Notes under the pieces: model-generated
What the model saw: only the letters and a program-made list of their open reading frames with translations
Database searches by the model: none
What the model was told of the DNA's origin: nothing
In this document: positions 1-24,565 of the stretch, one piece after another
How positions within the stretch are numbered: the first letter of the stretch is position 1
Layout of the letters: the number at the start of each line of letters is the position of its first letter
Origin: Spirochaetia bacterium
GTDB taxonomy: Bacteria > Spirochaetota > Spirochaetia > WTKD01 > G963693115
Assembly (NCBI GenBank): GCA_965226065.1
Contig: OZ245332.1
Span: 98,206 to 162,205 of the forward strand
Direction of reading: 5' to 3'
Length of the DNA stretch: 64,000 bases
Position numbers and translations under genes: made by a program

Positions 1-308
1 TGCATCGACTGTCGCTATACTAGTATCGCTTGATTTATAGGTAATAGCACCTGTGTCGTCTGCTACTTCCTTTGTTTTGCGTATCTCTTGTTTATAAGAT
101 GATGTTTCAGTAATTGATGCTTTATCGCTTTTTTTAGCAAAGCTAATGGTTGTGCCTTGAATAAGTTGAGTCTTTGTGGTCTCACCTTCTACGGTATTAC
201 TTGAAGCTTTGGATGTTTTTTCTGATTTGGGACTATCGCAGGCTGCGATAAGGAAGTTTAATAAAAGGAATATATATATATATATATATATAGGTTCTTG
301 TATATCAT
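1..308 (-). CDS. BspA-like (DUF285/LRR-type) surface lipoprotein, N-terminal part only; gene runs off the left edge of the window. The upstream ATG is currently out of frame across a (TA)11 tract
   Basis: Minus-strand translation of 1..270 reads FLLLNFLIAACDSPKSEKTSKASSNTVEGETTKTQLIQGTTISFAKKSDKASITETSSYKQEIRKTKEVADDTGAITYKSSDTSIATVDA. This gives a lipobox (LIAAC) and an N-domain like the 18585..19640 product (CDSPKSKKT..., YTSSNKAIATVDNAG). An AAGGAG RBS (complement of 315..320) and ATG (complement of 306..308) lie upstream, but that frame reads MIYKNLYIYIYIYIYSFY-stop through (TA)11 at 271..292. Confidence 0.5.
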
Positions 309-575
309 GGATTACTCCTTATATAAGTAAAGTTTCTATAAGCTTAAAGGCTTACTATATATATAATAGACACTTTTGATATATTTTCAAGAGCTTTGCT
401 GTCAGTTCGCATACTCCTATATAGTAGTATTTTGATAAAACATGGTGTGTAATATAGCAAAAAGCATGACAGAAAGATATAATAAAAACAATTACTTCAT
501 AATATGTTTCTTTCAATATCATTTAAGATTCTTAAGAAGAAGTAAGCATGATCTACGTATTTTAGAGGTTTTTAT

Positions 576-926
576 ATGGCAGAAGATAATACAAACAATC
601 TCATATCTCATAAAAGCGAAGTTTCAACAAGAAGTCAATTAGCGACTTTTTTGTTATGTACCTTCCTTGGATTTTTCGGTGCACATAGGTTGTATGCAGG
701 TAAGATAGGCTCAGGTATTACAATGATGCTCTTGATAATTGTTTTTGTACCGCTATTATTATTTTCTACAGATGCGGTGCAATCACAAGATGAAGCTTCT
801 TTTGGAGCTCTATTATCTTTAGCCGCAGGTGCTGTTGTAGTTCTTTGGATTATTATTGATTGGTTTGTAATACTTACAGGTAATTTTAAGGATAACGAAG
901 GGAAGAGAATACAAAAATTATTGTAA
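576..926 (+). CDS. TM2-domain membrane protein
   Basis: 116 aa with two hydrophobic helices and a GAHRLYAGK motif typical of the TM2 (G-x-H-R-F/L-Y) domain. Confidence 0.65.
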   Translation: MAEDNTNNLISHKSEVSTRSQLATFLLCTFLGFFGAHRLYAGKIGSGITMMLLIIVFVPLLLFSTDAVQSQDEASFGALLSLAAGAVVVLWIIIDWFVILTGNFKDNEGKRIQKLL

Positions 927-1262: not shown

Positions 1263-3812
1263 ATGAGCCAAGACACCATACAATTTCACCTTAGAAGAGC
1301 AGGGCGTTATTACAAAGAAGGCAAATACGAAAAGGCGATAAAAACGCTTACATTGATTATCAATTCAGACGCACCAGATGACATCAAGGCAGATGTATAC
1401 AACAACAGAGGACTTGCCAAATACGACTTACAGAGGTACGAGGAAGCGATAGAGGATTATGACAAGGCGATAGAACTACAGTCCGACCATGTTGAGACAT
1501 ACAACAACTTCACCAAGCTTGATCGCAAAGATCCCGCCGAACTACAGCTCAACTATGCAAATGCATACAACAACAGAGGCGCTGCCAAAGAAAAATTACA
1601 GAGATACGAAGAGGCGATAGAAGATTACGACAAGGCGATAAAACTACAGCCCAACCATGCCGCAGCATATAACAACAGAGGCAGTGCCAAAGGAGAATTA
1701 CAGAGATACGAGGAAGCGATAGAAGATTACGACAAGGCGATAAAACGAAAGCATGACTATGCAGATGCATACTACAACAGAGGCAATGCCAAAGGAAAAT
1801 TACAGAGACACGAGGAAGCGATAGAAGATTACGACAAAGCGATAGAGCTACAGCTTGACCATGTTGAGGCATACTACAATAGAGGCAGTGCCAAAGGAAA
1901 ATTACAGAGATACGAGGAAGCGATAGAGGATTACGACAAGGCGATAAAATTACAGCCCAACCATGCCGCAGCATATAACAACAGAGGCAATGCCAAAAAC
2001 AGCTTACAGAGATACGAGGAAGCGATAGAGGATTATGACAAGGCGATAGAAAGACAGCCCAACCTTGCAGATGCATATAGCAACAGAGGCGCTACCAAAG
2101 ACAAATTACAGAGATACGAAGAAGCGATAGAGGATTACGACAAGGCGATAGAAAGACAGCCCGACTATGCCGAGGCATGGTACAACTGTATAAAAAATGC
2201 TACAAAAGAGTTAGAAGAAAGACAGCCCGACTATGCCGAGGCATGGTACAACAGAGGCAATGCCAAACGTAGCTTGGGGAGGTACGAAGAGGCGATAGCG
2301 GACTACGACAAGGCGATAGAACGAAAGCATGACTATGCAGATGCATACAACAATAGAGGCGCTACCAAAGACAAATTACAGAGATACGAGGAAGCGATAG
2401 AAGATTACGACAAGGCGATAGAACGAAAGCATGACTATGCAGATGCATACAACAACAGAGGACTTGCCAAAGCCAAATTACAGAGATACGAAGAGGTGAT
2501 AGAAGATTATGATAAGGCGATAGAACTACAGCCCGAAGATGCCAATGCATGGTTCAACAGAGGCAATGCCAAAAACAACTTACAGAGATACGAGGAAGCG
2601 ATAGCGGATTACGACAAGGCGATAGAGTTACAGCCTAAGCTTGCCGAGGCATACAACAACAGAGGCGTTGCCAAATACGACTTACAGAGGTACGAAGAAG
2701 CGATAGAAGATTACGACAAGGCGATAGAGCTACAATCCGACCATGCAGGTGCATACCGCAACAGAGGCAATGCCAAATACGACTTACAGAGATACGAAGA
2801 GGCGATAGCGGATTACGACAAGGCGATAGAGCTACAACCCGACCATGCAGGGGCATACTACAACAGAGGCGTTGCCAAAGCCAAATTACAGAGATATGAA
2901 GAGGCGATAGCGGATTACGACAAGGCGATAGAGCTACAGCCTAATCTTGCCAATGCATGGTTCAATAGAGGCAATGCCAAAGGCAGCTTACAGAGACACG
3001 AAGAGGCGATAGCGGATTTTGACACAGCGATAGAATTACAGCCCGACTATGCTAAGGTATACCACAACAGAGGCGTTGCCAAACATAGCTTGGGGAGATA
3101 CGAGGAAGCGATAAGGGATTACTACAAGGCGATAGAGCTACAGTGTGAGAACGCAAAGAAAGACTTTAAAACAATAACATGCTATAAGTTCATCCCCATT
3201 AGCAAAAACAGCATAAACATGCTGGTAAAAAACATGGTGTATTTTAGCGATGTTCCGTCCCTGAACGACCCGCTGGAATGCCCTCTTTTGTTAACAATAT
3301 TTCAGGGCGTATTTGAAGGCAAACATGAACCGCGTATTTTCTCACTCGTGGTTCCACCTCCCAATGACAAACCAGATGAGTATGGGATACATGAGGTCGT
3401 ACGCAACACACTCCTTTTCAGCCACTATGCAGATGCGCACAAGGGAATATGCATAGGGTACGAAATAGCTCCAGAGTTTCTGCAACAAGGCACGATGTTC
3501 TATACACCTGTGCAATATAGCAAGAATACAATACCAGATAGCCTGGAGAAGCTCTTTGCCATTAAGGATGAGCTATGGAAATATGAGCATGAGGGGCGTT
3601 TTGTAGCCTTTGGCACAGAGAAACACTATCAATTGCAAGGGAATTCACGCATTACAAGGCTTATCTTTGGGCTTAAAACACCTGGAAAAGACAAGACTTT
3701 GTTGTCGAAACTTCTACAAGGTAAAGGAATAGGCTTATATGATACCTACAGTGATGAATATAGTTCTTTTGATCTCAAGTTTAAGGTTCGCAAACAATCT
3801 CATATCTCATAA
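1263..3812 (+). CDS. TPR-repeat protein with C-terminal DUF2971 domain (paralog 1, roughly 18-19 TPR units)
   Basis: AGGAGG RBS 7 nt upstream of ATG 1263; the ORF-track start at 1197 is probably too early. The N-terminus MSQDTIQFHLRRAGRYYKEGKYEKAIKTL is homologous to MTQGIE..NRATRYRKEGKYEEAI of paralogs 2 and 3. Long array of 34-aa units (AYNNRGNAKxxLQRYEEAIEDYDKAIELQP). The C-terminal ~230 aa carry DUF2971 hallmarks: LVKNMVYFSDVPSLNDPLECPL, LLFSHYADAHKGICIGYEI and LWKYEHEGRFVAF. The last codons (KQSHIS) derive from a copy of the TM2 gene 5' end. Confidence 0.85.
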   Translation: MSQDTIQFHLRRAGRYYKEGKYEKAIKTLTLIINSDAPDDIKADVYNNRGLAKYDLQRYEEAIEDYDKAIELQSDHVETYNNFTKLDRKDPAELQLNYANAYNNRGAAKEKLQRYEEAIEDYDKAIKLQPNHAAAYNNRGSAKGELQRYEEAIEDYDKAIKRKHDYADAYYNRGNAKGKLQRHEEAIEDYDKAIELQLDHVEAYYNRGSAKGKLQRYEEAIEDYDKAIKLQPNHAAAYNNRGNAKNSLQRYEEAIEDYDKAIERQPNLADAYSNRGATKDKLQRYEEAIEDYDKAIERQPDYAEAWYNCIKNATKELEERQPDYAEAWYNRGNAKRSLGRYEEAIADYDKAIERKHDYADAYNNRGATKDKLQRYEEAIEDYDKAIERKHDYADAYNNRGLAKAKLQRYEEVIEDYDKAIELQPEDANAWFNRGNAKNNLQRYEEAIADYDKAIELQPKLAEAYNNRGVAKYDLQRYEEAIEDYDKAIELQSDHAGAYRNRGNAKYDLQRYEEAIADYDKAIELQPDHAGAYYNRGVAKAKLQRYEEAIADYDKAIELQPNLANAWFNRGNAKGSLQRHEEAIADFDTAIELQPDYAKVYHNRGVAKHSLGRYEEAIRDYYKAIELQCENAKKDFKTITCYKFIPISKNSINMLVKNMVYFSDVPSLNDPLECPLLLTIFQGVFEGKHEPRIFSLVVPPPNDKPDEYGIHEVVRNTLLFSHYADAHKGICIGYEIAPEFLQQGTMFYTPVQYSKNTIPDSLEKLFAIKDELWKYEHEGRFVAFGTEKHYQLQGNSRITRLIFGLKTPGKDKTLLSKLLQGKGIGLYDTYSDEYSSFDLKFKVRKQSHIS

Positions 3813-4074: not shown

Positions 4075-5004
4075 TTAAAAAAGTAATTCAGGAGCGTGAT
4101 TTATGACAAATAGCGCCAAATCTTCATGAGCTAATAAATCAATAGGCTTTCCAAACTCATCAGATTTTTCATCAATCTCTTTTTCTATCGTCTCTGTGCT
4201 TTCGGCAGTGGTAGCTATTATTCCTCCATGTGCATCGTAATGCTCTATTGCGCCTACAATCTGTTCGACTGCATGTGTATTCTCTATTCTTCCTTCATAA
4301 GATTTTACTTGCACAACGATCAAATGTGGATATTCTATATTATTCGCTATTTTGATGTTCGTCTCTATAATTAGATCTGCCCCATGATCCGTACCCCAGC
4401 CTACTTCATTAAGTGTTACATCTTTTACATCGGGAACTTTTTTAAATACCTTATATAAAAATTCCTCAAGGTTTTTACTCTTATTCATTTGTTGAATCTT
4501 TACAGCGATATTGCTTAGCATGGGGGTCAGTTCTTTTTTGAGATGATGTATTTCTCTCGTCTCTCCGCCTTCAAGTTGTATCTTATTACTTTTTAAGTTC
4601 TCTATAGATTCATGAAATGCGTCTTCCGCACGTATTCTTTGAAATCTTTGTCGAGGTTTCAGATTAACTGTGGGTAGAACATTTGCATTCTTTCTATCAA
4701 ACTCTATCACCGTACTGGTATCAACTTCAAAGTAATGCGGAAAGGCACTAGTTTTCTCTCCAAATTTATATTCTGACGTAATTCTCGCAGCGGTACAGTG
4801 TCCTTTCCGTGGTGAATTGATAAACACGATCCAATCATCTTTATGTACTTGACGAAGACGTTCAAAATATTGATATGGTTCTTTTGGGATTCCTTCCTCC
4901 CCAGCATGTATTCGTACTGTTCCTTCATGCATCCAATCTTTGATTTGTTCTCTAATTTCGTCCTTGCATCCTTTCCATGATGCCCCAACTGACCATACTG
5001 CCAT
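4075..5004 (-). CDS. Restriction endonuclease-like protein with C-terminal Mrr-cat (PD-(D/E)xK) domain and an N-terminal domain of unknown type
   Basis: The C-terminal GWGTDHGADLIIETN....HLIVVQVKSYEG fits the Mrr catalytic-core pattern (DGGIDG...D..I...IQAK). The ~130-aa N-terminal region was not recognised. Confidence 0.5.
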   Translation of the reverse strand: MAVWSVGASWKGCKDEIREQIKDWMHEGTVRIHAGEEGIPKEPYQYFERLRQVHKDDWIVFINSPRKGHCTAARITSEYKFGEKTSAFPHYFEVDTSTVIEFDRKNANVLPTVNLKPRQRFQRIRAEDAFHESIENLKSNKIQLEGGETREIHHLKKELTPMLSNIAVKIQQMNKSKNLEEFLYKVFKKVPDVKDVTLNEVGWGTDHGADLIIETNIKIANNIEYPHLIVVQVKSYEGRIENTHAVEQIVGAIEHYDAHGGIIATTAESTETIEKEIDEKSDEFGKPIDLLAHEDLALFVINHAPELLF

Positions 5005-5253: not shown

Positions 5254-6501
5254 TTACATTGTATCTCGCGTGGCTCCGAAACTCAGCAAGTACTCACGAT
5301 AGTACTCGTACTGTGCTCTGCGTGCCTTAAGTTCTGCAGGCAAGCCGATGCTTATGTCGTTCACTAAGGCGTCAAACTTGTCTAAAAGAGACACAATGCG
5401 TTCTTGCACAGGTAGGGGAGGTATGGGGATGGTGAGTTTAGCAACATCTTTTGAATAAACATGAGGAACTCCGCTTCCGCTTTTAAGATTGTGTAATACA
5501 TTTTGACAGTTTTTTAAAAAATGAAAAGCATATTTTGTAAGCAATAAACATTTATTTGTTTTTATTGAAAAGGCATCTGATACAAAAATTTCGGTCGTCC
5601 AATAACTAACAAAACCCGCATACGCACCGCTTCCCGCAATTACAATTGTTTCGCCATCTCTATTTCCTTTGTTATGATAATAGGCCGCTTTTCTGCCACC
5701 TGCAATAACAGGGATGTCACCACTTGAAATATTTTTTTTAGTTATGGATGTTCCTCGCTTAAGTTCCGCAACTTCTCCCAACGCCCTCCACTCCACGTCA
5801 TCGCCAAAGGTGAGAAGCTTCTCACGGTAGTGCTTATACTGCGCTACGCGCGCCTCAAGCTCCGCCTCAAGCTCCGCCTCAAGCTCCGCCTCAAGCTCCG
5901 CCTCAAGCTCCGCCTCAAGCTCCGCCTCAAGCTCCGTGAATGTGTCTAGCACGCCTACAATGTACTCTTGCACAGGTAGGGGTGGTATGGGGATTAGATA
6001 TTTTTTTATATCGTTAAAATTAACTGATGAAAATGTTGCACCAGAAGCTTTACTGGCAAGTACTTGTCCATGTATTTGCATAATATGAAAAAGATATTTG
6101 CTTATAACTTTTTTAGTAGCTTGTATTCCACATAAACCTCTGCCTATACAAATTTTTCTATCAGTATAATTTATTGCCCCTACAGGTGCTCGAACACTCA
6201 TTATTACGTTATGAGCTTCTATAATTTTTGTTATTTTAGAAGTATGCTTTTGAGAGTTAGCAACAACATAGTTAGTAAAATGGGATTTTCCTTGATGAAA
6301 TTCTAAATCATTTTTGTTTGATGAAACAAACTTACCTTCTGGAGATTGTCCCATTATAAGATTAAAGTAATTTATATCCCCCAGCGCTCTATACTCCACC
6401 CCGTGCGGGCAGTGCTCGGCCATCAGCCGTTCCAGCGTATTCATAGTGCACTCATGATGGTTCGCCAATAATCCCGCATAGTCCCATGATATCATGCACA
6501 T
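5254..6501 (-). CDS. hsdS: Type I restriction-modification specificity subunit HsdS (copy 1; TRD-A + TRD-B), with 7 tandem ELEA repeats in the central spacer
   Basis: Two-TRD architecture. Conserved central and C-terminal segments: IPIPPLPVQE...LD.FTELEA...RVAQYKHYREKLLTF and IPIPPLPVQERIVSLLDKFDALVNDISIGLPAELKARRAQYEYYREYLLSF. Seven 12-bp units (cctcaagctccg) at 5853..5936 encode (ELEA)7. No hsdM or hsdR in the window. The start may really be at the MNTL... methionine rather than MCMIS.... Confidence 0.85.
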   Translation of the reverse strand: MCMISWDYAGLLANHHECTMNTLERLMAEHCPHGVEYRALGDINYFNLIMGQSPEGKFVSSNKNDLEFHQGKSHFTNYVVANSQKHTSKITKIIEAHNVIMSVRAPVGAINYTDRKICIGRGLCGIQATKKVISKYLFHIMQIHGQVLASKASGATFSSVNFNDIKKYLIPIPPLPVQEYIVGVLDTFTELEAELEAELEAELEAELEAELEAELEARVAQYKHYREKLLTFGDDVEWRALGEVAELKRGTSITKKNISSGDIPVIAGGRKAAYYHNKGNRDGETIVIAGSGAYAGFVSYWTTEIFVSDAFSIKTNKCLLLTKYAFHFLKNCQNVLHNLKSGSGVPHVYSKDVAKLTIPIPPLPVQERIVSLLDKFDALVNDISIGLPAELKARRAQYEYYREYLLSFGATRDTM

Positions 6502-6708: not shown

Positions 6709-8661
6709 ATGACTCAAGGCATAGAATTGAACTTCAATAGAGCGACACGATATCGCAAAGAAGGCAAATATGAAGAGGCGATAGAAACGCTTACATTGAT
6801 TATCAAATCAGACGCACCAGATGACATCAAGGCAGGTGCATACTACAATAGAGGCGTTGCCAAACACGACTTAGAGAGATACGAGGAAGCGATAAGGGAT
6901 TACGACAAGGCGATAGAGCTACAGCCTAAGCTTGCCGAGGCATACAACAACAGAGGACTTGCCAAACACGACTTAGAGAGATACGAGGAAGCGATAGCGG
7001 ATTACGACAAGGCGATAGAACTACAGCCTAAGTTTACCGAGGCATGGTACAACAGAGGACTTGCCAAATACGCCTTACAGAGGTACGAGGAAGCGATAGC
7101 GGATTACGACAAGGCGATAGAACTACAGCCTAAGCTTGCCGGGGCATACAACAACAGAGGACTTGCCAAACACGACTTAGAGAGATACGAGGAAGCGATA
7201 GCGGATTACGACAAGGCGATAGAGCTACAGCCTAAGCTTGCCGAGGCATACAACAACAGAGGCAATGCCAAACGTAGCTTGGGGAGATACGAGGAAGCGA
7301 TAAGGGATTTCGACAAGGCGATAGAGCTACAGCCCGACTATGCTAAGGCATACAACAACAGAGGACTTGCCAAACACGACTTAGAGAGATACGAGGAAGC
7401 GATAGCGGATTACGACAAGGCGATAGAACTACAGCCTAAGCTTACCGAGGCATGGTACAACAGAGGACTTGCCAAATACGCCTTACAGAGGTACGAGGAA
7501 GCGATAGCGGATTACGACAAGGCGATAGAACTACAGCCTAAGCTTGCCGGGGCATACAACAACAGAGGACTTGCCAAACACGACTTAGAGAGATACGAGG
7601 AAGCGATAGCGGATTACGACAAGGCGATAGAGCTACAGCCTAAGCTTGCCGAGGCATACAACAACAGAGGCAATGCCAAACGTAGCTTGGGGAGATACGA
7701 GGAAGCGATAAGGGATTTCGACAAGGCGATAGAGCTACAGCCCGACTATGCTAAGGCATACAACAACAGAGGACTTGCCAAACACGACTTAGAGAGATAC
7801 GAGGAAGCGATAGCGGATTACGACAAGGCGATAGAGCTACAGCCTAAGCTTGCCGAGGCATACTACAATAGAGGCAATGCCAAATACAAATTAAAAAGAT
7901 ATGAAGAGGCGAAAGACGACCATCATCAGGCAATTAAGCTGCAATGTGAGAATGCACAAGAAAAATATAAGCCCATAACAAGCTATAAGTTCAGACCCAT
8001 CAATAAAAACACCATAAGCCTTTTGGTACAAGGTGAATTATATTTTAGCGATATTCCATCCCTGAACGACCCGCTGGAATGCCCCCTGATGCACTTCATG
8101 TATAAAGATATATTCAAAGATGCCAATAAGCCGCACATTTTGTCACTGGTTGTCCCCTCTCATCAACATACAAAAAACAAAGACGGAATATATACGGATC
8201 TGGTAAACAACACCTTGCTCTTCAGCCATTATGCTGATTCACACAAGGGCATATGCATAGAATACGAAATACAAGAAACACTATTAAAACAAGAACAAGC
8301 ACGCATATTCTACACCTCTGTACAATACAGCACAAACACAGAAGCACAAAATATTGAAAAACTCTTTGCCATTAAGGATGAAAAATGGAAATACGAGAAC
8401 GAAGCGCGCTTTATAGCCTTTGATGAGCAACAAGAGCCAACACGCCCGGGCAACATATATAAAGGTGGTGTGCACATTAAGAAAATAATATTCGGACTTG
8501 AAACGCCTAAGGAAGACAAAAAGCTATTGTACACCCTCTTGCACAAAGAAAACAAAGAACATTTACAAGGCATAAAGTTTTTTAACACAGAAAGCAAACC
8601 CAAAAGCTTTTTCACCCTGAAGTTTACGCCGTATACACCGCCAGACCAGGTTGGTTCATAA
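6709..8661 (+). CDS. TPR-repeat protein with C-terminal DUF2971 domain (paralog 2, roughly 11-12 TPR units; contains a perfect ~408-bp 4-TPR tandem duplication)
   Basis: Same unit structure as paralog 1. The C-terminal domain reads LLVQGELYFSDIPSLNDPLECPL, LLFSHYADSHKGICIEYEI and KWKYENEARFIAF. The 6937..7344 segment is repeated at 7345..7752 almost base for base. Confidence 0.85.
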   Translation: MTQGIELNFNRATRYRKEGKYEEAIETLTLIIKSDAPDDIKAGAYYNRGVAKHDLERYEEAIRDYDKAIELQPKLAEAYNNRGLAKHDLERYEEAIADYDKAIELQPKFTEAWYNRGLAKYALQRYEEAIADYDKAIELQPKLAGAYNNRGLAKHDLERYEEAIADYDKAIELQPKLAEAYNNRGNAKRSLGRYEEAIRDFDKAIELQPDYAKAYNNRGLAKHDLERYEEAIADYDKAIELQPKLTEAWYNRGLAKYALQRYEEAIADYDKAIELQPKLAGAYNNRGLAKHDLERYEEAIADYDKAIELQPKLAEAYNNRGNAKRSLGRYEEAIRDFDKAIELQPDYAKAYNNRGLAKHDLERYEEAIADYDKAIELQPKLAEAYYNRGNAKYKLKRYEEAKDDHHQAIKLQCENAQEKYKPITSYKFRPINKNTISLLVQGELYFSDIPSLNDPLECPLMHFMYKDIFKDANKPHILSLVVPSHQHTKNKDGIYTDLVNNTLLFSHYADSHKGICIEYEIQETLLKQEQARIFYTSVQYSTNTEAQNIEKLFAIKDEKWKYENEARFIAFDEQQEPTRPGNIYKGGVHIKKIIFGLETPKEDKKLLYTLLHKENKEHLQGIKFFNTESKPKSFFTLKFTPYTPPDQVGS

Positions 8662-8860
8662 ACTCTACATGTGTTAAAAGAGACACGGAGCGATGCCAAC
8701 AGAGAGACGGAAACGCCCCCCACCCGACATGTCCATGTCTTTGGTATCTCTGGTAGCCATCAAAACCTGACTTTACACAAAAAAACCCCTGATGACTTGA
8801 TTATGTAAAAGGCCGTGTTATGATAACATTCAGTAACATTTAATCAACAAGGAGTAAACC

Positions 8861-9776
8861 ATGATGATATATAAGAAAGCAATAGCCCTTCTGTCCCTTC
8901 TTTTGACCTTAATTATCGCAGCATGCGAAAACCCCCAACCAACATAGAGAAAAACGGTAAAGCCGACACGGATACAGACTCCGAAGGAGAATCTGCAGGC
9001 GAAACAGGCAACGAATCCGAAGACGATGGCGAAGACGCAGCCCCCGCCGCATATAGTTTTGCATTTGACACGGCAGCCACAAGGTTGCATTCACCTCAGG
9101 TGGCACATACACCCGTGCCGTCGTCGAGACAAACAAGCCCGCAGGCGACGCACGGGCTACTACATATACCTCAAGCGAGGGCAAGATAGCCACGGTCAAC
9201 GAAGCAGGTGTCGTAACCTTTGTGACCCAGGGCACGGTGACCATCACGGCCACCAAGACAGCGGAACCTGGCCATGAAAAAGCTACTGCCAGCTATGAAC
9301 TTACCATTACCAAAATGAAGCCCGCAAATAAACAGGCACTTGCCAATGAAATAACCCGAGCGATGGATGCACACGGCAACAAAGTCAACCTCAACTACAT
9401 AGACGTCTCTGATATCACCGACATGAGCTATCTTTTTAGTAGCCATGCATTCGGTTATGGGCGTCAGGCATTCAATGGCGACATATCAGAGTGGAAGGTG
9501 GCAAAGGTGACCAATATGTTCGCTACGTTTGAAGGTGCTACTGCGTTCGATCAGAATATCTCAAAGTGGGATGTGTCAGGGGTTGAAGATATGGTTTTTA
9601 TGTTTAAGGATGCAACCTCGTTCAAGCAGAACCTCAATGCATGGGGGAACAGAATAAACAACGCTTTAAAAGCTGATAAATGGAGAAATACAAAAATTAT
9701 GTTTACAGGCAGCGGTCTTGCGGACAATCTCCCTTCATGGTGTGCAAGTGTGCAAGCGTGTAGAAATGGACAATAA
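8861..9776 (+). pseudogene. BspA-like (DUF285) surface lipoprotein gene disrupted by two frameshifts
   Basis: AAGGAG RBS then MMIYKKAIALLSLLLTLIIAACENPQPT-stop. The frame continues in +1 after a C5 tract (8932..8936) as ...AAYSFAFDTAATR. A second shift occurs near 9075..9085 into the 9222..9776 frame (VAFTSGGTYTRAVVETNKPAGD...TYTSSEGKIATVNEAGVVTFV...). That frame aligns with the 18585..19640 protein and carries DUF285 units (NLNYIDVSDITDMSYLF..., ISKWDVSGVEDMVFMF). Confidence 0.6.
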
Positions 9777-12180: not shown

Positions 12181-13407
12181 TTACATTGTATTTCGCGTGG
12201 CTTCGAAACTAAGCAAGTACTCACGATAGTACTCGTACTGTGCTCTGCGTGCCTTAAGTTCTGCAGGCAAGCCGATGCTTATGTCGTTCACTAAGGCGTC
12301 AAACTTGTCTAAAAGAGACACAATGCGTTCTTGCTCTGCAAGGGGCGGTATGGGGATAGAAAACTTATTTATTATTGAAGAATTTATATTATTGATAGTA
12401 GTGCTACAGATACTTTTTTTAAGATATTGCAAGAAATTACCGCTACCTAACAAATAAAAAATAAATTGAGAATTAATACTTTTATTACATCTTATAACTG
12501 CCATAAAGCCACCAAAGTAGTAATCTATATTGTTATTAATATATGCAACTTTTCCTACATGGGCTTTACTTCCACTTGCTACGCTCATAAGAATATCACC
12601 TTTTTTTAACTTTTGCGTATCTTTAATTTTGGTATCTTTAGACACAACTTTAACATCTTCAAAGTTTAATCTATTATTTAATATGTCAATATTATTCGCT
12701 CTTAATATTTTGAAACCACTGTTTAAAGTTGTTTCCTGCGATTTATTGTAAGTAACCCCTCGCACATATTTAGCAATTTCTCCTAATTCTCTATATTCCA
12801 CGTCATGGCCAAAGGTGAGCAGCTTCTCACGGTAGTACTTATACTGCGCTACGCGCGCCTCAAGCTCCGCCTCAAGCTCCGTAAAGCTGTCGAGTATCTT
12901 TACGATTGCTTCTTGCACAGGTAGGGGTGGTATGGGTATGGGCAGTTTGGCAACATCTTTTGAATAAACATGAGGAACTCCGCTTCCGCTTTTAAGATTG
13001 TGTAATACATTTTGACAGTTTTTTAAAAAATGAAAAGCATATTTTGTAAGCAATAAATATTTATTTGTTTTTATTGAAAAGGCATCTGATACAAAAATTT
13101 CGGTCGTCCAATAACTAACAAAACCCGCATACGCACCGCTTCCCGCAATTACAATTGTTTCGCCATCTCTATTTCCTTTGTTATGATAATAGGCCGCTTT
13201 TCTGCCACCTGCAATAACAGGGATGTCACCACTTGAAATATTTTTTTTAGTTATGGATGTTCCCCGCTTAAGTTCCGCAACTTCTCCCAATTCTCTATAC
13301 TCCACCCCGTGCGGGCAGTGCTCGGACATCAGCCGTTTCAGCGTATTCATAGTGCACTCATGATGGTTCGCCAATAATCCCGCATAGTCCCATGATATCA
13401 TGCACAT
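12181..13407 (-). CDS. hsdS: Type I R-M specificity subunit HsdS (copy 2; TRD-B + TRD-C), 2 ELEA repeats in the central spacer
   Basis: Identical N- and C-terminal conserved regions to copy 1. Its first TRD (GEVAELKRGTSITKKNISSGDIPVIAGG...AKLPIPIPPLPVQE) is the same sequence that forms the second TRD of copy 1; its second TRD is unique. Only two cctcaagctccg units are present. Confidence 0.85.
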   Translation of the reverse strand: MCMISWDYAGLLANHHECTMNTLKRLMSEHCPHGVEYRELGEVAELKRGTSITKKNISSGDIPVIAGGRKAAYYHNKGNRDGETIVIAGSGAYAGFVSYWTTEIFVSDAFSIKTNKYLLLTKYAFHFLKNCQNVLHNLKSGSGVPHVYSKDVAKLPIPIPPLPVQEAIVKILDSFTELEAELEARVAQYKYYREKLLTFGHDVEYRELGEIAKYVRGVTYNKSQETTLNSGFKILRANNIDILNNRLNFEDVKVVSKDTKIKDTQKLKKGDILMSVASGSKAHVGKVAYINNNIDYYFGGFMAVIRCNKSINSQFIFYLLGSGNFLQYLKKSICSTTINNINSSIINKFSIPIPPLAEQERIVSLLDKFDALVNDISIGLPAELKARRAQYEYYREYLLSFEATRNTM

Positions 13408-17494: not shown

Positions 17495-18580
17495 ATGGAC
17501 ATAGAACTGAAAGAAATTACGGTACGTGAATTAACCGAAGGCTACAAAGACAACAAAGAAGGCGGAGTTGTTGGCTATGCAGGCAGGCTAGACATCCGCC
17601 CGCCGTTTCAACGAGAGTTTATTTATAAAGAGCATCAAAAAAATGCCGTCATCGACACCATCACCAAAGGCTTTCCTTTAAACGTGATGTACTGGGCAGT
17701 GCGCAGCGATGGTAAGAGTTTTGAAATCATAGACGGACAACAGCGCAGCATCTCCATATGCCAATATGTATCTCACGAATTTTCCTTTGAGGGACGGTAC
17801 ATCCACAATCTGCAAGAAGACGAGCAAGCGCAGATATTGAACTACAAGCTGATGGTTTATTTCTGCCGTGGCACAGACAGTGAAAAGCTCAAGTGGTTCA
17901 AAACCATTAACATAGCGGGGGAAAGGCTTACTGACCAAGAGTTAAGAAACGCCGTGTATTCAGGCTCGTGGGTTAGCGATGCGAAGAGATATTTTAGCAA
18001 AGGGGGTTGTCCTGCCTACGAAATCGGAAATGGCTATCTCAATGGTTCTGCCATACGGCAAGAGTATCTTGAGACCGCTATCAAGTGGATAAGCAACAAC
18101 AAGATAGAAGACTACATGGGAAAACAGCAGCACAAACCCAATGCCAACGAACTGTGGTTGTACTTTCAGGGAGTCATTAATTGGATTAAAGCAACCTTTC
18201 CCACCTATCGCAAAGAGATGAAAGGCTTAGAATGGGGCGATTTGTATGTCCGCTACAAAGATAGCCATCTTGACTCTCAAAAGCTTGAAGAAGAAATCGC
18301 TACATTGATGCAAGATGACGATGTAACACGAAAACAAGGCATTTACGCCTATGTGCTCACAGGAGAAGAAAGGCACTTGAACATCCGCGCCTTTACGGAC
18401 AATCAAAAACGGGAAGCTTACGAAAAACAAGAAGGTATATGCACACAGTGTAAAAAACACTTTAGCATAGAAGATATGGAAGCCGACCACATCACCCCGT
18501 GGCATGAAGGTGGAAAAACCATACCTGAGAACTGTCAAATGCTGTGCAAAGAAGATAACAGAAGAAAATCAGGTAAATAA
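17495..18580 (+). CDS. DUF262 (GmrSD N-terminal, ParB-like) + HNH endonuclease protein; likely type IV (modification-dependent) restriction-type nuclease
   Basis: The EIIDGQQR motif is diagnostic of DUF262. The C-terminal CTQCKK...ADHITPWHEGGKT...NCQMLCKEDNRRK is a classical HNH motif. Confidence 0.75.
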   Translation: MDIELKEITVRELTEGYKDNKEGGVVGYAGRLDIRPPFQREFIYKEHQKNAVIDTITKGFPLNVMYWAVRSDGKSFEIIDGQQRSISICQYVSHEFSFEGRYIHNLQEDEQAQILNYKLMVYFCRGTDSEKLKWFKTINIAGERLTDQELRNAVYSGSWVSDAKRYFSKGGCPAYEIGNGYLNGSAIRQEYLETAIKWISNNKIEDYMGKQQHKPNANELWLYFQGVINWIKATFPTYRKEMKGLEWGDLYVRYKDSHLDSQKLEEEIATLMQDDDVTRKQGIYAYVLTGEERHLNIRAFTDNQKREAYEKQEGICTQCKKHFSIEDMEADHITPWHEGGKTIPENCQMLCKEDNRRKSGK

Positions 18581-18584
18581 CGCT

Positions 18585-19640
18585 TTAATCCGGACGTTTT
18601 TTAGCACAAGGACCTTTGCACCATGTGGGAAATCTAGAAAAAACAGGTAGAAATTCTCTAAGAAACATATCCCGTTTATATATTCTCTTAAACTTGAAGT
18701 AGTTTCCCCATTTTTGGAGATCTTGATTGAATGCGTTAGCATTCTTGAACATGTATGCTATATTTGTAACTGCTCTCATGTCCCAATCCGATATATCTTG
18801 ATTAAAGCTTGTAGCACTTTGAAACATGCTTCTCATATCCGTAACCGCCGCTACGTTCCATGTCCCTATATTTTGATTAAAGCTTGTAGCACTTTCAAAC
18901 ATGCTTTTCATATCCGTAACCGCCGCTACGTTCCATGTCCCTATATTTTGATTAAAGCTCGTAGCACCGACAAACATTTGGCGCATATTTTCAACTTCTA
19001 ATACCTTCCAGCCTGATATGTCGATGTTAAAAACTGTATTATCTTGAAACATTTCCTCCATAGTTCTTACCTTAGAAGTATCCCACATGGAGATATCGCC
19101 ATTGAATTCGTGAAACCCATAGCCTTCTACTTCTAGACTTACCTCATGATCTTTTCTAAACAGCGAGCTCATATCGGTGATGGCAGAGGTGTCTATGTAG
19201 TTGAGGTCGACCATATTTCCTTTAGCAGTCGTAGCTCGTTCTATTTCAGCTACCAGAGCGTCCTTAAGTTGGGGTTTGAACTTTTCTATGTTTAATTTGT
19301 AGCTGTCAGTTATCTCATCGTATCCATCTGAAGCTTCTTTTGTAGCGGTGATGGTAACTTTGCCCAAGCTAACAAAGCTTACTACTCCTGCATTATCGAC
19401 CGTGGCTATCGCTTTATTACTTGATGTATACACAATATCTCGGGTATCGCCTGTTGGCTTACTTGTTTCGCTTACGGGTTTGTTGTATGTGCCATTTGTC
19501 GTGTATTCAACCTCGTAGCTGTTTTTATCAAAGGCAAAGCTGTAAGCGACAGACTTGTCTGTTTTTTTTGATTTTGGACTATCGCATGCTGCGATAAAAA
19601 AGGTAAATGCAAGTATTAAAATTACATTAAAATGTTTCAT
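18585..19640 (-). CDS. BspA-like (DUF285, Mycoplasma-type LRR) surface lipoprotein
   Basis: Lipobox FIAACDSP. C-terminal repeats of about 26 aa (SFNQNIGTWNVAAVTDMKSMFESAT; FNGDISMWDTSKV). Confidence 0.8.
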   Translation of the reverse strand: MKHFNVILILAFTFFIAACDSPKSKKTDKSVAYSFAFDKNSYEVEYTTNGTYNKPVSETSKPTGDTRDIVYTSSNKAIATVDNAGVVSFVSLGKVTITATKEASDGYDEITDSYKLNIEKFKPQLKDALVAEIERATTAKGNMVDLNYIDTSAITDMSSLFRKDHEVSLEVEGYGFHEFNGDISMWDTSKVRTMEEMFQDNTVFNIDISGWKVLEVENMRQMFVGATSFNQNIGTWNVAAVTDMKSMFESATSFNQNIGTWNVAAVTDMRSMFQSATSFNQDISDWDMRAVTNIAYMFKNANAFNQDLQKWGNYFKFKRIYKRDMFLREFLPVFSRFPTWCKGPCAKKRPD

Positions 19641-19911
19641 AGTTTTTTCCTTCTTTAATTTACTACTTAACTAATTTACTACTTATACTATACGCCGGGG
19701 CTAAGGCAATTAAGTTTTTTAATAACAATAAATATCTTTTATATTATATCATTTCTTTCTTGCACTGGTTGCGTCTATGTTATATGTCGCGGTGCTTCTT
19801 TTGTATTTTGCGTTTTCTTGAAGTTCTGCAGTAATAGTATACACTCTGAGGCTGGCATAATATCTGATTGTAACTTCCCCGCTACTGCTGTTAATGGTAA
19901 CACCGAAGTTC

Positions 19912-20467
19912 TTAGGTTCTTATGCTATATCTTATATTTCGGTTATCTCCTGCAACTGCTCCACTCTTACTAGCTGTTTGAGTAATTGTAGTACTTTTTC
20001 GTTTTATTGTTTTGCGGCTTGTGTCTGCAAAGCTTAAAGTATTACCCTGTTTTCTTGTAAATTCAATCGGCTCACTTGCTACCTCCTCGCCACCAAACGA
20101 AGCAACTACGATTACATTTTGTGCTGCGTGCGTTGCGGTAATCTTCATTGCGGGATTGCTTGCGGGATTTTTTGCCTCCTTAGCAGTAACTCCGCTAAGT
20201 GTTATTCTAGGTGGCACTGTTTTTCTTAAAGCGTAAGTATATCCCGCTGTTTTTCTAAAAATTATATCCGTATCCCACGGTACAGATTTATCACTAAACG
20301 CGGGCTTAGTTAGTGTAGACTTTGTTCCCCCTTTGTTGGCTTCTACAACTGTTTCAGTAGCTGCCTCATTGAGTGCTTTCTTGAGTTCTGCCTTTGCTTT
20401 CTTTTCATCGCATGAGATGAATAAAGCCAATGCAATAAATATTATTACTATATATATAATTCTTCAT
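19912..20467 (-). CDS. Lipoprotein related to the N-terminal domain of the BspA-like family (no LRR part); the ATG with RBS is out of frame across a (TA)5 tract
   Basis: Body (ALFISCDEKKAKAELKK...TKPAFSDKS...FRKTAGYTYALRKT...VIVVASFGGEEVASEPIEF) aligns with the N-domains of the 20499..21830 and 21849..22739 proteins. The minus strand shows AAGGAG-aaattatt-ATG (ATG = complement of 20465..20467). That frame reads MKNYIYSNNIYCIGFIHLMR-stop; the body frame is entered 1 nt later. The ORF track starts at an internal TTG at 20430. Confidence 0.5.
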
Positions 20468-20498
20468 AATAATTTCTCCTTATTTTGTTTTTTATGTA

Positions 20499-21830
20499 TC
20501 ACCTTGCCCAACTCGGCTTGTTCAATGTCTCCATTGCCGTAGCGCCTGTGAACATGTTTGTAGTCTCTCTTCCGCTCTTATCTTTCCAACCGCTGATGTC
20601 TTGATTGAATGAGGTAGCTTTGTAGAACATATTGCTCATGTCGGTTACGCTCAATACATTCCAAGTCTTAAGTGGTTGATTGAATGAGGTAGCACTGTCG
20701 AACATAGCGCTTATGTCTGTTACGCTTGATACATTCCAAGTATTAAGCGGTTGGTTGAATGAGGTAGCTTTGTAGAACATACTGCTCATGTAGGTTACCT
20801 GCGATACATTCCAAGTCTTAAGTGGTTGATTGAATGAGGTAGCACCGCTGAACATAAAGCGCATGTCTGTTACGCTTGATACATTCCATGTGTTAAGCGG
20901 TTGGTTGAATGAGGTAGCATTCAAGAACATAGCGCTTATGTCGGTTACGCTTGATACATTCCATGTGTTAAGCGGTTGGTTGAATGAGGTAGCATTCGAG
21001 AACATATAGCGCATGTCGGTTACGCTTGATACATTCCAAGTCTTAAGTGGTTGGTTGAATGAGGTAGCACTGTCGAACATAGCGCTTATGTCTGTTACGC
21101 TTGATACATTCCAAGTCTTAAGTGGTTGGTTGAATGAGGTTGCGCCGTGGAACATAACGCTCATGTCGGTTACCCTTGATACGTTCCAATTATTAAGCGG
21201 TTGGTTGAATGAGGTAGCACCTCTGAACATACAGCTCATGTTGATTACGCTTGATACATTCCAATTATTAAGCGGTTGGTTGAATGAGGTAGTGCCGTCG
21301 AACATATAGCTCATGTCGGTTACGCTTGATGTGTCCCATTTGCTTATGTCACCGTTGAATTTTATTTTTTTATAAAAAAGATCGCTCATGTCTGTTATTT
21401 CTGATGTGTCTATGTAATTTAGATTTACATTGTTGCCGTGTGCTTTTATTGCTTTGTTAATTTCTGCTTGTAATGCTGCTTTGTTTGCTACATGAAAAAG
21501 AAAGTCTATAGGTTCGCTATCAATGGTATTGTCGTCCTTAGTAGCAACAACCACAACACCGCTTATTGCTTTTGTAGATCTTACTTGTTTCTTCGTGGAA
21601 TCTCCCACTACATCGCTAAGCATTACGCTGCTTGTAGCGGTTTTCAGTGCATAGCTATGCCCTGCTACTTTTGTAAATGTAGCCGCTCTTCCTGCCCTCA
21701 CACGGTAGGCGCTTAGTACGGGCTTTGTTAGCTTAGCGGTGTTCTTATCTGCCTCTGCTACCGTTTCATCACATCCCAATAATGCAATGGCTAATGCGAT
21801 ACATACTATCGCTGTATGTAGTTTTCTCAT
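20499..21830 (-). CDS. BspA-like (DUF285) LRR surface lipoprotein, about 11 tandem 26-aa repeats
   Basis: Lipobox LLGCDE. Repeats TSFNQPLNTWNVSSVTDMSxMFxxA encoded by ~78-bp tandem DNA repeats (about 20560..21330). Confidence 0.85.
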   Translation of the reverse strand: MRKLHTAIVCIALAIALLGCDETVAEADKNTAKLTKPVLSAYRVRAGRAATFTKVAGHSYALKTATSSVMLSDVVGDSTKKQVRSTKAISGVVVVATKDDNTIDSEPIDFLFHVANKAALQAEINKAIKAHGNNVNLNYIDTSEITDMSDLFYKKIKFNGDISKWDTSSVTDMSYMFDGTTSFNQPLNNWNVSSVINMSCMFRGATSFNQPLNNWNVSRVTDMSVMFHGATSFNQPLKTWNVSSVTDISAMFDSATSFNQPLKTWNVSSVTDMRYMFSNATSFNQPLNTWNVSSVTDISAMFLNATSFNQPLNTWNVSSVTDMRFMFSGATSFNQPLKTWNVSQVTYMSSMFYKATSFNQPLNTWNVSSVTDISAMFDSATSFNQPLKTWNVLSVTDMSNMFYKATSFNQDISGWKDKSGRETTNMFTGATAMETLNKPSWAR

Positions 21831-21848
21831 AATAATACTCTTCTTTTT

Positions 21849-22739
21849 TCACCTTGCCCAAGTAGGCTTGTTCAATGTTTGCATTGCCATTGCACCTGCA
21901 AACATGTCTGTAGTGTATCTTCCGCTCTTCTCTGCCCAAGCTCTTAAGTCTTGATTGAATACCGTAGCTGCTCTGAACATTTCGCGCATGTTTGTTACGC
22001 TTGAGATATTCCAACTATTAAGTGGCTGATTGAATGCCCTAGCAAGATTGAACATAGCACCCATGTCTGTTACCTTCGATACATTCCAAGTAGTAAGCGG
22101 TTGATTGAATGCCCTAGCATTTTGGAACATACCGTACATGTCTGTTACCTTTGATACATTCCAAGTAGTAAGCGGTTGATTGAATTTCCTAGCATTTTGG
22201 AACATGCGGATCATGTTTGTTGCTTCCGATACATCCCATTTACTAATATCACCGTTAAAATCTTTTTTGTCTTCAAAAAGCTTGCTCATGTCGGTTACTT
22301 CCGAGGTGTCGATGTAGTTTAGGTTTACTTCGTTGCCGTGTAATTTTATCGCTTCGGTAATTTCTGCTTGTAATGCTGCTTTGTTTGCTACATGAAAAAG
22401 AAAGTCTATAGGGTCGCTATCAATGCTATTACCGTCAAGCGTGGCAACCACCACAATACCGCTTACTACTACCGTAGAGCTTACTTGTTTTTTAGTGGTA
22501 TCACCCACTACATCGCCAAGTGTTACACCGCTTGTAGCGGTTTTCAGTGCATAGCTATGCCCTGCTACTTTTGTAAATGTAATTGGTATTTCTTTTCTCA
22601 CACGGTAAGTACTTAATACGGGCTTTGTGAGCTTTGTGGTGTTCTTGTCTGTCTCTGCTACCGTTGCTTTCTTCTCATCACATCCCAATAATGCAATGGC
22701 TAATGCGATAAATATTATTGCTGTATGTAGTTTTTTCAT
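21849..22739 (-). CDS. BspA-like (DUF285) LRR surface lipoprotein, fewer repeats
   Basis: N-domain is about 80% identical to the previous gene. Repeats FNQPLTTWNVSKVTDMYGMFQNARA. Confidence 0.85.
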   Translation of the reverse strand: MKKLHTAIIFIALAIALLGCDEKKATVAETDKNTTKLTKPVLSTYRVRKEIPITFTKVAGHSYALKTATSGVTLGDVVGDTTKKQVSSTVVVSGIVVVATLDGNSIDSDPIDFLFHVANKAALQAEITEAIKLHGNEVNLNYIDTSEVTDMSKLFEDKKDFNGDISKWDVSEATNMIRMFQNARKFNQPLTTWNVSKVTDMYGMFQNARAFNQPLTTWNVSKVTDMGAMFNLARAFNQPLNSWNISSVTNMREMFRAATVFNQDLRAWAEKSGRYTTDMFAGAMAMQTLNKPTWAR

Positions 22740-23308: not shown

Positions 23309-23557
23309 AGTTTGTTTATCACCTCATGGTGGCCGTATAGTAAGTTGAAATGAGTTGTTTCACCTTCATAGTAGATAATTCGTAGTACATTTTCAAGTAT
23401 TGATTTTAATTAAAAATATGGTTTTCTATGTATCAAAATATGGCAATATTATAGGGTTAAATTGACATATCTTTATAAGATTACATACAATAGAAAGAAA
23501 CACAATAACAAAAAATGTATTATTACATCAAATAATAACAATGAGTTAGGGGGATAC

Positions 23558-24565
23558 ATGAAAATTGCAATAAATGGATTTGGTCGCATAGGACGTAATG
23601 TTTTTAAAATAGCACTAGAGCATGGACTTGATATCGTGGGTATTAATGACCTTACTGATACTAAGACGCTTTGTATGCTTTTGCGTTATGATTCAACACA
23701 AGGCAAATTTCAAGGAAAGGTTTCGTACGATGATACGTCACTGCTAGTAAACGGGAAGCAATACAAAGTTTTTGCCGAAAGAAACCCAAAGAACATCCCC
23801 TGGGGACTGTCTCCCGATGTTGTTGTCGAGGCTACTGGTGTGTTTGCAGAAAGAAGTTCTGCCAAAGGTGGTTATGGAGATCACCTTGAAAACGAGAAAT
23901 TCCCTGCAAAGCGTGTTATCCTTACAGTTCCGTCAAAAGATACCATAGACAATACTATCGTAATGGGCGTAAATGAAGATGCACTTCGTAGTACAGACAG
24001 ATGTGTCTCGAATGCATCGTGTACGACAAACTGCCTTGCTCCTATAGCTAAAATACTTGATGAAAAATTTGGAATTCAAAAAGGCTATATGACTACGGTA
24101 CACGCGTATACAAATGACCAAATTATATTGGATGCACCGCATAAAGACTTACGTCGAGCGCGTTCTGCGGCATTGTCGATTATTCCTACAACCACAGGGG
24201 CGGCGCGAGCTGTCGGAAAAGTATTGCCACAGCTTAATGGAAAACTCGATGGTGTAGCAATGCGTGTACCAACTCCTACGGGCTCTATTGTCGATTTAGT
24301 CGTACTAGTAGAAAAAGAGCCTCGCGTAGAAGAGGTGAATGCTGCGGTAAAAAACTATGCTGAAAATCAACTCAAAGGTATTTTAGAATATACAGAAGAT
24401 CCGATTGTATCTGCAGATATTGTACACAATTCGCATTCATCTATATTTGATGCGACTAGCACCATGGTTATGGGAAATATGATAAAAGTATTTTCGTGGT
24501 ATGACAACGAATGGGGCTACTCTTCACGCGTTGTGGATCTTGCGAAAAAACTTGCAACGCTATAG
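23558..24565 (+). CDS. gap: Glyceraldehyde-3-phosphate dehydrogenase
   Basis: MKIAINGFGRIGR NAD-binding N-terminus, catalytic SCTTNCLAP, C-terminal WYDNEWGYS. GGGG RBS. The ORF-track start at 23462 is too early. Confidence 0.95.
   Translation: MKIAINGFGRIGRNVFKIALEHGLDIVGINDLTDTKTLCMLLRYDSTQGKFQGKVSYDDTSLLVNGKQYKVFAERNPKNIPWGLSPDVVVEATGVFAERSSAKGGYGDHLENEKFPAKRVILTVPSKDTIDNTIVMGVNEDALRSTDRCVSNASCTTNCLAPIAKILDEKFGIQKGYMTTVHAYTNDQIILDAPHKDLRRARSAALSIIPTTTGAARAVGKVLPQLNGKLDGVAMRVPTPTGSIVDLVVLVEKEPRVEEVNAAVKNYAENQLKGILEYTEDPIVSADIVHNSHSSIFDATSTMVMGNMIKVFSWYDNEWGYSSRVVDLAKKLATL

Follow-up and report, generated by a model that had tools for sequence, protein, structure and literature searches.

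Anatomy of the (TA)5 site

On the minus strand of the 64-kb window, by which the whole stretch of analysed DNA is meant, a DUF285 lipoprotein gene ends with the stop codon TGA at 20501..20499, and the Shine-Dalgarno sequence AAGGAG of the next gene begins 17 nucleotides past it, at 20481..20476. The start codon is followed by AAG and AAT, a tract of five TA units, and a segment encoding the hydrophobic core of a putative signal peptide with a lipobox (Table 1). The minus-strand string is TAAGGAGaaattattATGAAGAAT(TA)5GTAATAATATTTATTGCATTGGCTTTATTCATCTCATGCGATGAAAAG. Everything that a first-pass annotation had stated about the sequence of this arrangement, from the ribosome-binding site (RBS) through ATG-AAG-AAT to (TA)5, holds on the minus strand, and the ATG frame does end after 20 codons, as had been noted (TGA 20407..20405). 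The tract was rebuilt in silico with three to nine units: the ATG and the long open frame are connected with n = 3, 6, or 9, but not with n = 5. The translation with n = 6 is MKNYIYIVIIFIALALFISCDEKK... (MKNYIYIVIIFIALALFISCDEKKAKAELKK...) and is continuous with the open reading frame (ORF) 19912..20430, which bears out the earlier prediction that a sixth unit would fuse the signal peptide and lipobox to this frame. In the (TA)6 frame, MKN-YIYIVIIFIALA-LFISC-DEKK, residues L16, F17, S19, and C20 each show conservation of 90% or more among 21 paralogs. Phenylalanine in position -3 does not follow the classical lipobox pattern, yet it is usual in spirochaetal lipoproteins.

The tract is a simple sequence repeat (SSR) with a unit length that is not divisible by three, located inside a reading frame near its 5' end. 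A 10-nucleotide TA run (TATATATATA) is expected 0.38 times per 64-kb window according to dinucleotide shuffles (maximum of 4), and nine overlapping matches, belonging to three tracts, are present; therefore, the occurrence of (TA)5 is more than chance would give. A promoter and terminator scan found no promoter for the target gene, which probably rides on the transcript of the array. Two alternative ways of reading the site were rejected. The internal TTG at 20430 is not the true start, because it has no RBS upstream and its product, which would start with MALFISC, would have no leader. Genetic code 4, in which TGA encodes tryptophan, does not apply, because long ORFs throughout the window read with table 11.

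Table 1. Positions of the features of the (TA)5 locus and of related TA tracts.
Feature	Position	Strand	Remarks
Shine-Dalgarno sequence AAGGAG	20476..20481	-	8 nt 5' of the ATG; read directly
Cassette start codon ATG	20465..20467	-	followed by AAG AAT
(TA)5, putative slippage site	20449..20458	-	starts 9 nt past the A of the ATG; followed by GTAATAATATTTATTGCATTGGCTTTATTCATCTCATGCGATGAA
ATG frame as sequenced	20405..20467	-	20 codons, MKNYIYSNNIYCIGFIHLMR, then TGA 20407..20405
Predicted signal-peptide hydrophobic core and lipobox, VIIFIALALFISC	20410..20448	-	frame reached by one additional TA unit; Cys codon 20412..20410
Gene body, open frame	19912..20430	-	172 codons from TTG 20430; ends with TAA 19914..19912; same as P0001 of the protein collection
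Second, non-repeat frameshift	19915..19919	-	one extra base in GAACC; ...NIRYSIR / PKNFGVTINSSSGEVTI...
C-terminal remainder in +1 frame, EPKNFGVTINSSSGEVTIRYYASLRVYTITAELQENAKYKRSTATYNIDATSARKK and stop	19749..19919	-	three-frame translation and paralog alignment
ATTGC direct repeat (5 nt), upstream deletion boundary	20432..20436	-	
ATTGC direct repeat, downstream deletion boundary	19706..19710	-	
(TA)11 of second cassette, OFF	271..292	-	ATG 308..306; in frame at n = 7, 10, 13
(TA)5 in the 308-cassette promoter, -10 region	356..365	-	TTGAAA-N17/18-TATTATATATATATAG; A-to-G interruption in sister genome, length unchanged
Second (TA)5 in a -10 region	L027 5574..5583		cassette promoter, TTGAAA-N17/18-TATTATATATATATAG
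Three TA tracts of the window	271..292, 356..365, 20449..20458		scan of the 64-kb window

The gene behind the tract

The gene body covers a linker and one and a half Ig-like domains, as judged from the fold predicted for the paralog P0006. The ORF 19912..20430, as it had been reported, overlooked a second frameshift at 19919..19915. The long frame ends ...NIRYSIRT and a stop, and the protein resumes in the +1 frame as PKNFGVTINSSSGEVTIRYYASLRVYTITAELQENAKYKRSTATYNIDATSARKK and a stop, which extends to 19749. The positions of stop codons in both frames of a three-frame translation confine the shift to 19919..19915, and the extra base of GAACC is most likely the A. About 55 conserved residues at the C-terminus are lost through the frameshift, among them conserved strands of Ig-like domain 2. 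The addition of one TA unit alone gives 185 codons, compared with 223–269 in the paralogs, and does not restore a full-length ORF. The doubly repaired protein has 239 residues and aligns end to end with the 223–269-residue paralogs that start with MKKLYTTILIIAVALFISCDEKKA. The second frameshift could be recent, or it could be an assembly error for which the sister genome offers no check.

The 239-residue protein has 32 relatives, all of them located on two contigs (1,849,772 and 1,800,608 bp), and its closest paralog is 54% identical. No ortholog was found elsewhere in the collections searched: the family alignment gave 59 pattern matches, none of them a relative, in the contigs of 185,579 species representatives, from which the family is absent, and JGI metagenomes contained nothing that matched either the tract-spanning DNA pattern or the family alignment. 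The first-pass annotation had placed the gene in the BspA-type family. The repaired protein has no Pfam hit and lacks DUF285/PARCEL repeats (PF03382, TIGR02167), defined here as tandem repeats of about 25 residues (..FNQPL..WNVS.VT.M..MF..) matching PF03382; therefore, "BspA" membership of the target is ruled out. The genes around it, 18585..19640, 20499..21830, and 21849..22739, encode DUF285 (PF03382)/PARCEL lipoproteins with scores of 200–466 bits, which also match the NCBIfam PARCEL repeat. The part of the assignment that stands is an N-terminal Ig-like module, which is all that the target shares with its DUF285 neighbours (32–37% identity, E-values of 3e-11 and 9e-17).

The AlphaFold model of P0006, with a mean pLDDT of 80 and values above 90 over residues 70–230, contains a leader, a helical or disordered linker, and two tandem beta-sandwich domains. 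A Foldseek search of the PDB with this model returned cadherin EC tandems, titin Z1Z2, Leptospira LigA, and SraP, with E-values from 1e-7 to 1e-5 and low TM-scores of 0.3–0.36. P0006, rather than the target itself, is thus predicted from its model to belong to a tandem Ig/cadherin-like, adhesin-type class.

TA cassettes across the lipoprotein family

The distribution of TA tracts was examined in 160 kb of DNA from this genome and a close relative, referred to here as the sister genome. The loci of the relative (L001, L025, L026, L027, and L030), in which genes for these lipoproteins form tandem arrays, come from its 1,800,608-bp genome. The 160 kb contain 24 TA tracts with n ≥ 5, and all of them sit in homologous 5' cassettes of lipoprotein genes. 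In 22 cases, the tract is positioned between the RBS and ATG, followed by one to five codons, and the signal-peptide core with its lipobox; the remaining two tracts are in -10 regions. Twenty cassettes are complete, with n = 5–14 and a mode of 11, and eight of them are ON and 12 OFF. The sister genome contributes 18 of these (n = 6–14; 8 ON, 10 OFF). The recommendation to look for TA tracts in paralogs was therefore fruitful, since the 18 cassettes carry theirs in the same position as the target. The five units of the target make it the shortest tract of the 20, the other 19 having n = 6–14.

The first-pass annotation had pointed to the same architecture at 271..308, and the cassette there indeed has an ATG at 308 and an out-of-frame (TA)11. 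It had counted the two tracts as independent instances, which is not the case: they are copies of homologous 5' cassettes and belong to one cassette family.

The fraction of ON cassettes, 8 out of 20, differs little from the one third that random frames would give and does not by itself separate switching from decay. The two can be told apart because long intact ORFs lie behind OFF tracts and because one pair of orthologs is ON in one genome and OFF in the other. The ORFs behind OFF tracts have 481, about 900, and 921 codons, and such intact frames are the signature of recent switching, not of old decay. Six further OFF cassettes of the family carry extra disruptions; additional frameshifts are thus common among its members, and some of them may be errors of an assembly with 8x coverage. 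Pairs of cassettes with 95–96% identical flanks show that tract length evolves faster than the flanking sequence: n is 7 and 12 in a pair with 95% flank identity, and 11 and 14 in a pair with 96%.

The cassettes fall into three classes, and the target belongs to the one without its own promoter, with the layout aaggag..attattATGAA-(TA)n-…ATTGCATTGGC..TTCATCTCATGCGATGAAAAGAAAGCA. Its classmates L001 4195 ((TA)11, ON, 252 residues) and L001 5001 ((TA)10, ON, 392 residues) have the same aaggag..attattATG beginning. Fifteen family genes in these loci are constitutively in frame; they either lack a tract or carry just the proto-tract TTA TAT ACA (MKKLYTT). The typical proto-tract is TTATATACA, with (TA)3, and the proto-tract forms are CTACATACA and TTATATACA. 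TA is essentially the sole long SSR in the 160 kb, in which poly-G/C runs of seven or more are absent.

The only non-TA dinucleotide tract of at least five units in the 160 kb is an (AG)6 at L001 8087..8098, inside the family lipoprotein gene 7399..8166. At L026 14076..14208, a 94-bp tandem duplication of the 5' end of a cassette (RBS-like sequence, ATG, (TA)11, and start of the leader) has produced two (TA)11 tracts 94 bp apart. Positions 8830..9776 of the window contain a fragment of a DUF285 gene, with 184 residues from GTG 9222 (TVTITATK… followed by PARCEL repeats) and overlapping short ORFs upstream. It is probably a further frameshifted member of the family, without a TA tract.

Comparison with the sister genome

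The window belongs to the genome of the 1,849,772-bp contig, because its GAPDH gene (23462..24565) and the copy on that contig are 100% identical. The syntenic region, which consists of the GmrSD gene, the lipoprotein array, the tetratricopeptide repeat (TPR) lipoprotein gene, and GAPDH, is 95–99% identical between the two genomes. The two genomes compared are the only ones of this lineage in the collections searched, and their tract counts were taken from assemblies; the sister assembly has about 8x coverage, according to its contig name, and its tract counts and some of its extra frameshifts could be consensus errors. A relative whose GAPDH is 93% identical (L028) has no lipoprotein array beside GAPDH.

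The locus orthologous to the (TA)11 tract at 271..292 was located via P0216 with a 10-kb flank. The ortholog, L030 4318..4343, is a (TA)13 tract in the ON state, and its gene is called as a 478-residue Big_2 + DUF285 protein adjoining the same TM2-domain gene (116 residues in the window). The flanks are 98% identical over 644 nucleotides, and the 4-nucleotide difference in the tract is the only multi-base indel. This stretch of L030 contains three tandem copies of one Big_2 + DUF285 gene, whose tracts are (TA)12 at 642..665, OFF; (TA)11 at 2556..2577, OFF and with a further disruption; and (TA)13 at 4318..4343, in the ON state. Of these copies, the first is where the window ends.

At the target, the sister genome has an identical (TA)5 (L030 17175..17184), and the tract is out of frame in both genomes. 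Length polymorphism between strains, on which the first-pass annotation had made its proposal depend, is thus present at 271..292, with 11 and 13 units, and absent from 20449..20458, with five units in both genomes in a single comparison. The short (TA)5 stayed unchanged while the (TA)11 tract became (TA)13 between the same two genomes. One identical allele in two genomes is a weak sign of stability, and the identical segment, which comprises the 210 nucleotides upstream of a deletion junction, may simply be young. The sister genome retains at 100% identity everything from the end of the preceding gene through the RBS, ATG AAG AAT, and (TA)5 to GTAATAATATTTATTGC, and then jumps to CTTAGCCCCGG…, which lies past the gene in the window. 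The 726 bp missing from the sister genome are bounded by the two copies of ATTGC listed in Table 1. The gene is dispensable, because its body is deleted in the sister genome.

Next to the target, positions 20499..22739 of the window contain two tandem DUF285 genes (296 and 443 residues), compared with one (443 residues) in the sister genome, at L029 7854..9185. In BLAST searches, both window genes match the single sister gene, which therefore indicates duplication or unequal crossing-over in the repeat arrays.

Interpretation of the (TA)5 tract

Phase variation by slippage of TA units is strongly supported at the level of the lipoprotein family. In the proposed mechanism, a strong RBS and ATG and one to five codons are followed by a (TA)n tract encoding (Tyr-Ile)n, and then by the hydrophobic core and lipobox. 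Replication would add or remove TA units, presumably by slipped-strand mispairing, and the lipobox and mature protein would be shifted into or out of the frame of the ATG. Each cassette would thereby act as a translational ON/OFF switch of a surface lipoprotein gene. Because the tract lies within the cleaved signal peptide, its length would leave the mature protein unchanged, and the (Tyr-Ile)n stretch would be tolerated, since the leader would be removed by signal peptidase II. The phase variation proposed in the first-pass annotation stands for the family, in view of its mixed frames and of the (TA)11 OFF tract with a (TA)13 ON ortholog; by contrast, the tract for which it was put forward looks decayed.

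On balance, the (TA)5 tract appears to be a degenerate, locked-OFF relic of a slipped-strand translational switch in a lipoprotein gene that is already broken. This reading is favoured because the tract is the shortest among the complete cassettes and below the usual six-unit cut-off, because neither genome has it in frame, and because the gene has a second frameshift in one genome and has lost its body in the other. The cut-off is that of PhasomeIt, which requires six or more units for dinucleotide repeats (PMC6321876), and the five units at 20449..20458 fall under it. The target gene has presumably lost its function. Five units are not necessarily inert, because Helicobacter pylori oipA alleles with only five CT units include both ON and OFF states (PMC10564699).

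The same oipA alleles lend some credit to the possibility, which we consider unlikely, that the tract is an active but slow contingency switch that was OFF in both sampled populations. One additional TA unit would then produce a lipidated product of 183 residues in which a single Ig-like domain is complete; should the second frameshift revert or turn out to be an assembly error, all 239 residues would be made. The RBS and ATG are undamaged, as are the tract, the lipobox, and 172 codons, and the cassette is homologous to ON copies in a family whose tracts differ in state between genomes. However, the tract is the shortest of 20 and is the same in two genomes between which (TA)11 became (TA)13, the second frameshift costs about 55 conserved C-terminal residues, and the gene is deleted in the sister genome.

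It is quite unlikely that the site was never a switch, and that C-to-T changes in (YA)-rich codons together with an ordinary indel made a plain pseudogene resemble the switch cassettes. The source codons would be those of paralogs, AAA CTA CAT ACA or AAA TTA TAT ACA, which encode K-L-H/Y-T. The neighbouring genes start with ATGAAAAAACTACATACAGCAATAATATTT, and eight of the 12 positions across the tract match the target. Furthermore, the target has 22 nucleotides before ATAATATTT, whereas the neighbours have 21, and whole TA units alone cannot give a difference of one base. Fifteen family genes with a proto-tract or none are constitutively in frame, which is compatible with such an origin. By contrast, the segments from RBS to ATG and from the tract to the lipobox match those of the long-tract cassettes L001 4195 and L001 5001, perfect (TA)5 runs are rare, with 0.38 expected in 64 kb, and all other tracts with n ≥ 5 are found in cassettes. 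Judging from the neighbours, ATGAAAAAACTACATACAGCAATAATATTT…, TA tracts may be able to start from (YA)-rich K-L-H/Y-T codons via C-to-T changes. Because the target is one base longer than the neighbour layout, (TA)5 may be either a contracted long tract or an abortive expansion.

Long-read consensus can miscount short tandem repeats, and the sister assembly has about 8x coverage; however, an assembly artefact that hides a true (TA)6 and an ON gene is highly improbable, because two independent assemblies both have (TA)5 with 100% identical flanks, and 10 nucleotides are short for such an error. It is equally improbable that the DNA is left as it is and recoded, either by ribosomes from ATG 20467 that shift +1 on the UAUAUAUAUA run or by slippage of RNA polymerase. 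The shift needed is a single +1 step in a repetitive run, but the first 20 codons show none of the features usual for +1 frameshifting: the site has neither an in-frame stop nor a hungry codon, and an internal Shine-Dalgarno sequence is absent upstream of it. In addition, the family occurs in all three frames with the expected lengths of ON and OFF ORFs, which fits switching at the DNA level, and the product would still be cut short by the second frameshift.

Relation to known phase-variable systems

The Hop genes of H. pylori and opa of Neisseria are the closest systems in mechanism. The opa genes encode a multigene set of surface adhesins with CTCTT pentamers in the region coding for the leader, and their copies are switched independently. 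As in the TA cassettes, the coding repeat is in a hydrophobic leader; it is tolerated since the leader is cleaved, which would also apply to the TA cassettes. By contrast, the opa unit is a pentamer, and the products are beta-barrels encoded by copies scattered in the genome, whereas the TA cassettes are in tandem, operon-like arrays. Phase variation of Opa is mentioned in ref. PMC7864442. In H. pylori, oipA (hopH) and related Hop genes have CT repeats in the region coding for the signal peptide (PMC10564699). The likeness lies in a dinucleotide repeat just past the start codon, in the signal peptide of a surface protein, where slipped-strand frame changes turn translation ON or OFF. Tracts of oipA have about 5–11 units, in both ON and OFF alleles, and the mature protein is independent of their length, as it would be with the TA cassettes. 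The systems differ in that the unit is TA (Tyr-Ile) here and CT there, and the products are lipoproteins with a lipobox here and beta-barrels there. Furthermore, at least 20 paralogous cassettes are present here, in an uncultured Spirochaetia host in which switching is deduced from sequence, and the reported copy is apparently decayed.

Poly-TA tracts are known from the promoters of the hif fimbriae of Haemophilus influenzae. In Mycoplasma mycoides, Vmm/Vmc-type lipoprotein genes have poly-TA promoter tracts between the -35 and -10 elements (PMC3053259). These systems share with the one described here the TA unit, about 10–16 units per tract, variable surface genes, and lengths that differ by locus and strain. 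However, the Vmm and hif tracts act on transcription, whereas the long TA tracts here are inside the reading frame and would act on translation. The two TA tracts in -10 regions here have n = 5, and the one at 356..365 has the same length in both genomes. Repeat-based phase variation of surface proteins is also known from a spirochaete, since Treponema pallidum has poly-G tracts at tpr and other outer-membrane protein genes, mostly in promoters (PMC7864442). Its repeats are homopolymeric G, unlike those of the 160 kb analysed here, which contain no poly-G/C run of seven or more. In the literature covered, which is incomplete, so that absence is no proof, we found no account of coding TA tracts in lipoprotein leaders or of phase variation in DUF285/PARCEL proteins.

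Implications for the organism and for annotation

The family-wide system of coding TA tracts is more interesting than the locus from which the analysis started. It is likely that an uncultured, probably host-associated lineage of Spirochaetia, whose genome measures about 1.8 Mb, runs a large contingency system built entirely on TA tracts in the signal peptides of DUF285/PARCEL and Ig-like lipoprotein genes, in which tandem genes are switched independently in translation. At least 20 loci are present in 160 kb, and many more probably exist genome-wide. If this interpretation is correct, no coding-region TA-repeat phasome has been described before, nor any SSR-based translational phasome in a spirochaete, and the (TA)5 locus represents the low-rate or extinct end of the system. 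Translational switching by repeats would be extended to a spirochaete lineage and to the TA unit, which has so far been known mainly from promoters. Populations are predicted to be mosaics of lipoprotein expression states.

The succession of an RBS and ATG, a few codons, (TA)n, and a lipobox provides a sequence rule for variable surface genes, and explains many N-terminally truncated or fragmented calls of DUF285 and Ig-like genes in these genomes. The (TA)5 locus is of little importance itself, and its proper annotation is that of a frameshifted pseudogene rather than of a 172-residue protein with a TTG start.

Other features of the window

The chromosomal context of the window includes genes for CarB, ClpA, FtsK, and trigger factor, and an Rfam scan of the window gave one tRNA only. 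CarB places the organism among uncultured Spirochaetia: its best hit, with 78% identity, is on CBDAKK010000008.1, from a Spirochaetia bacterium MAG, and the hits that follow are likewise from spirochaete MAGs. The TPR lipoprotein that neighbours the array has 871 residues. An hsdS-like ORF on the minus strand (5254..6501) contains seven copies of a 12-nucleotide unit at 5851..5934, which encode (ELEA)7 in the middle of a type I restriction-modification specificity subunit. A second hsdS-like ORF (12181..13407) has the same first 23 residues and only two ELEA units. Changes in repeat number in this region of hsdS are a known route to variation in specificity (PMC7383803). The hsdS region is rearranged in the sister genome, where L030 is without an equivalent hsdS pair. 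The lipoprotein array is abutted by a gene at 17495..18580 that encodes GmrSD_N and HNH endonuclease domains, resembling type IV restriction enzymes, with one amino-acid difference seen relative to the sister genome.
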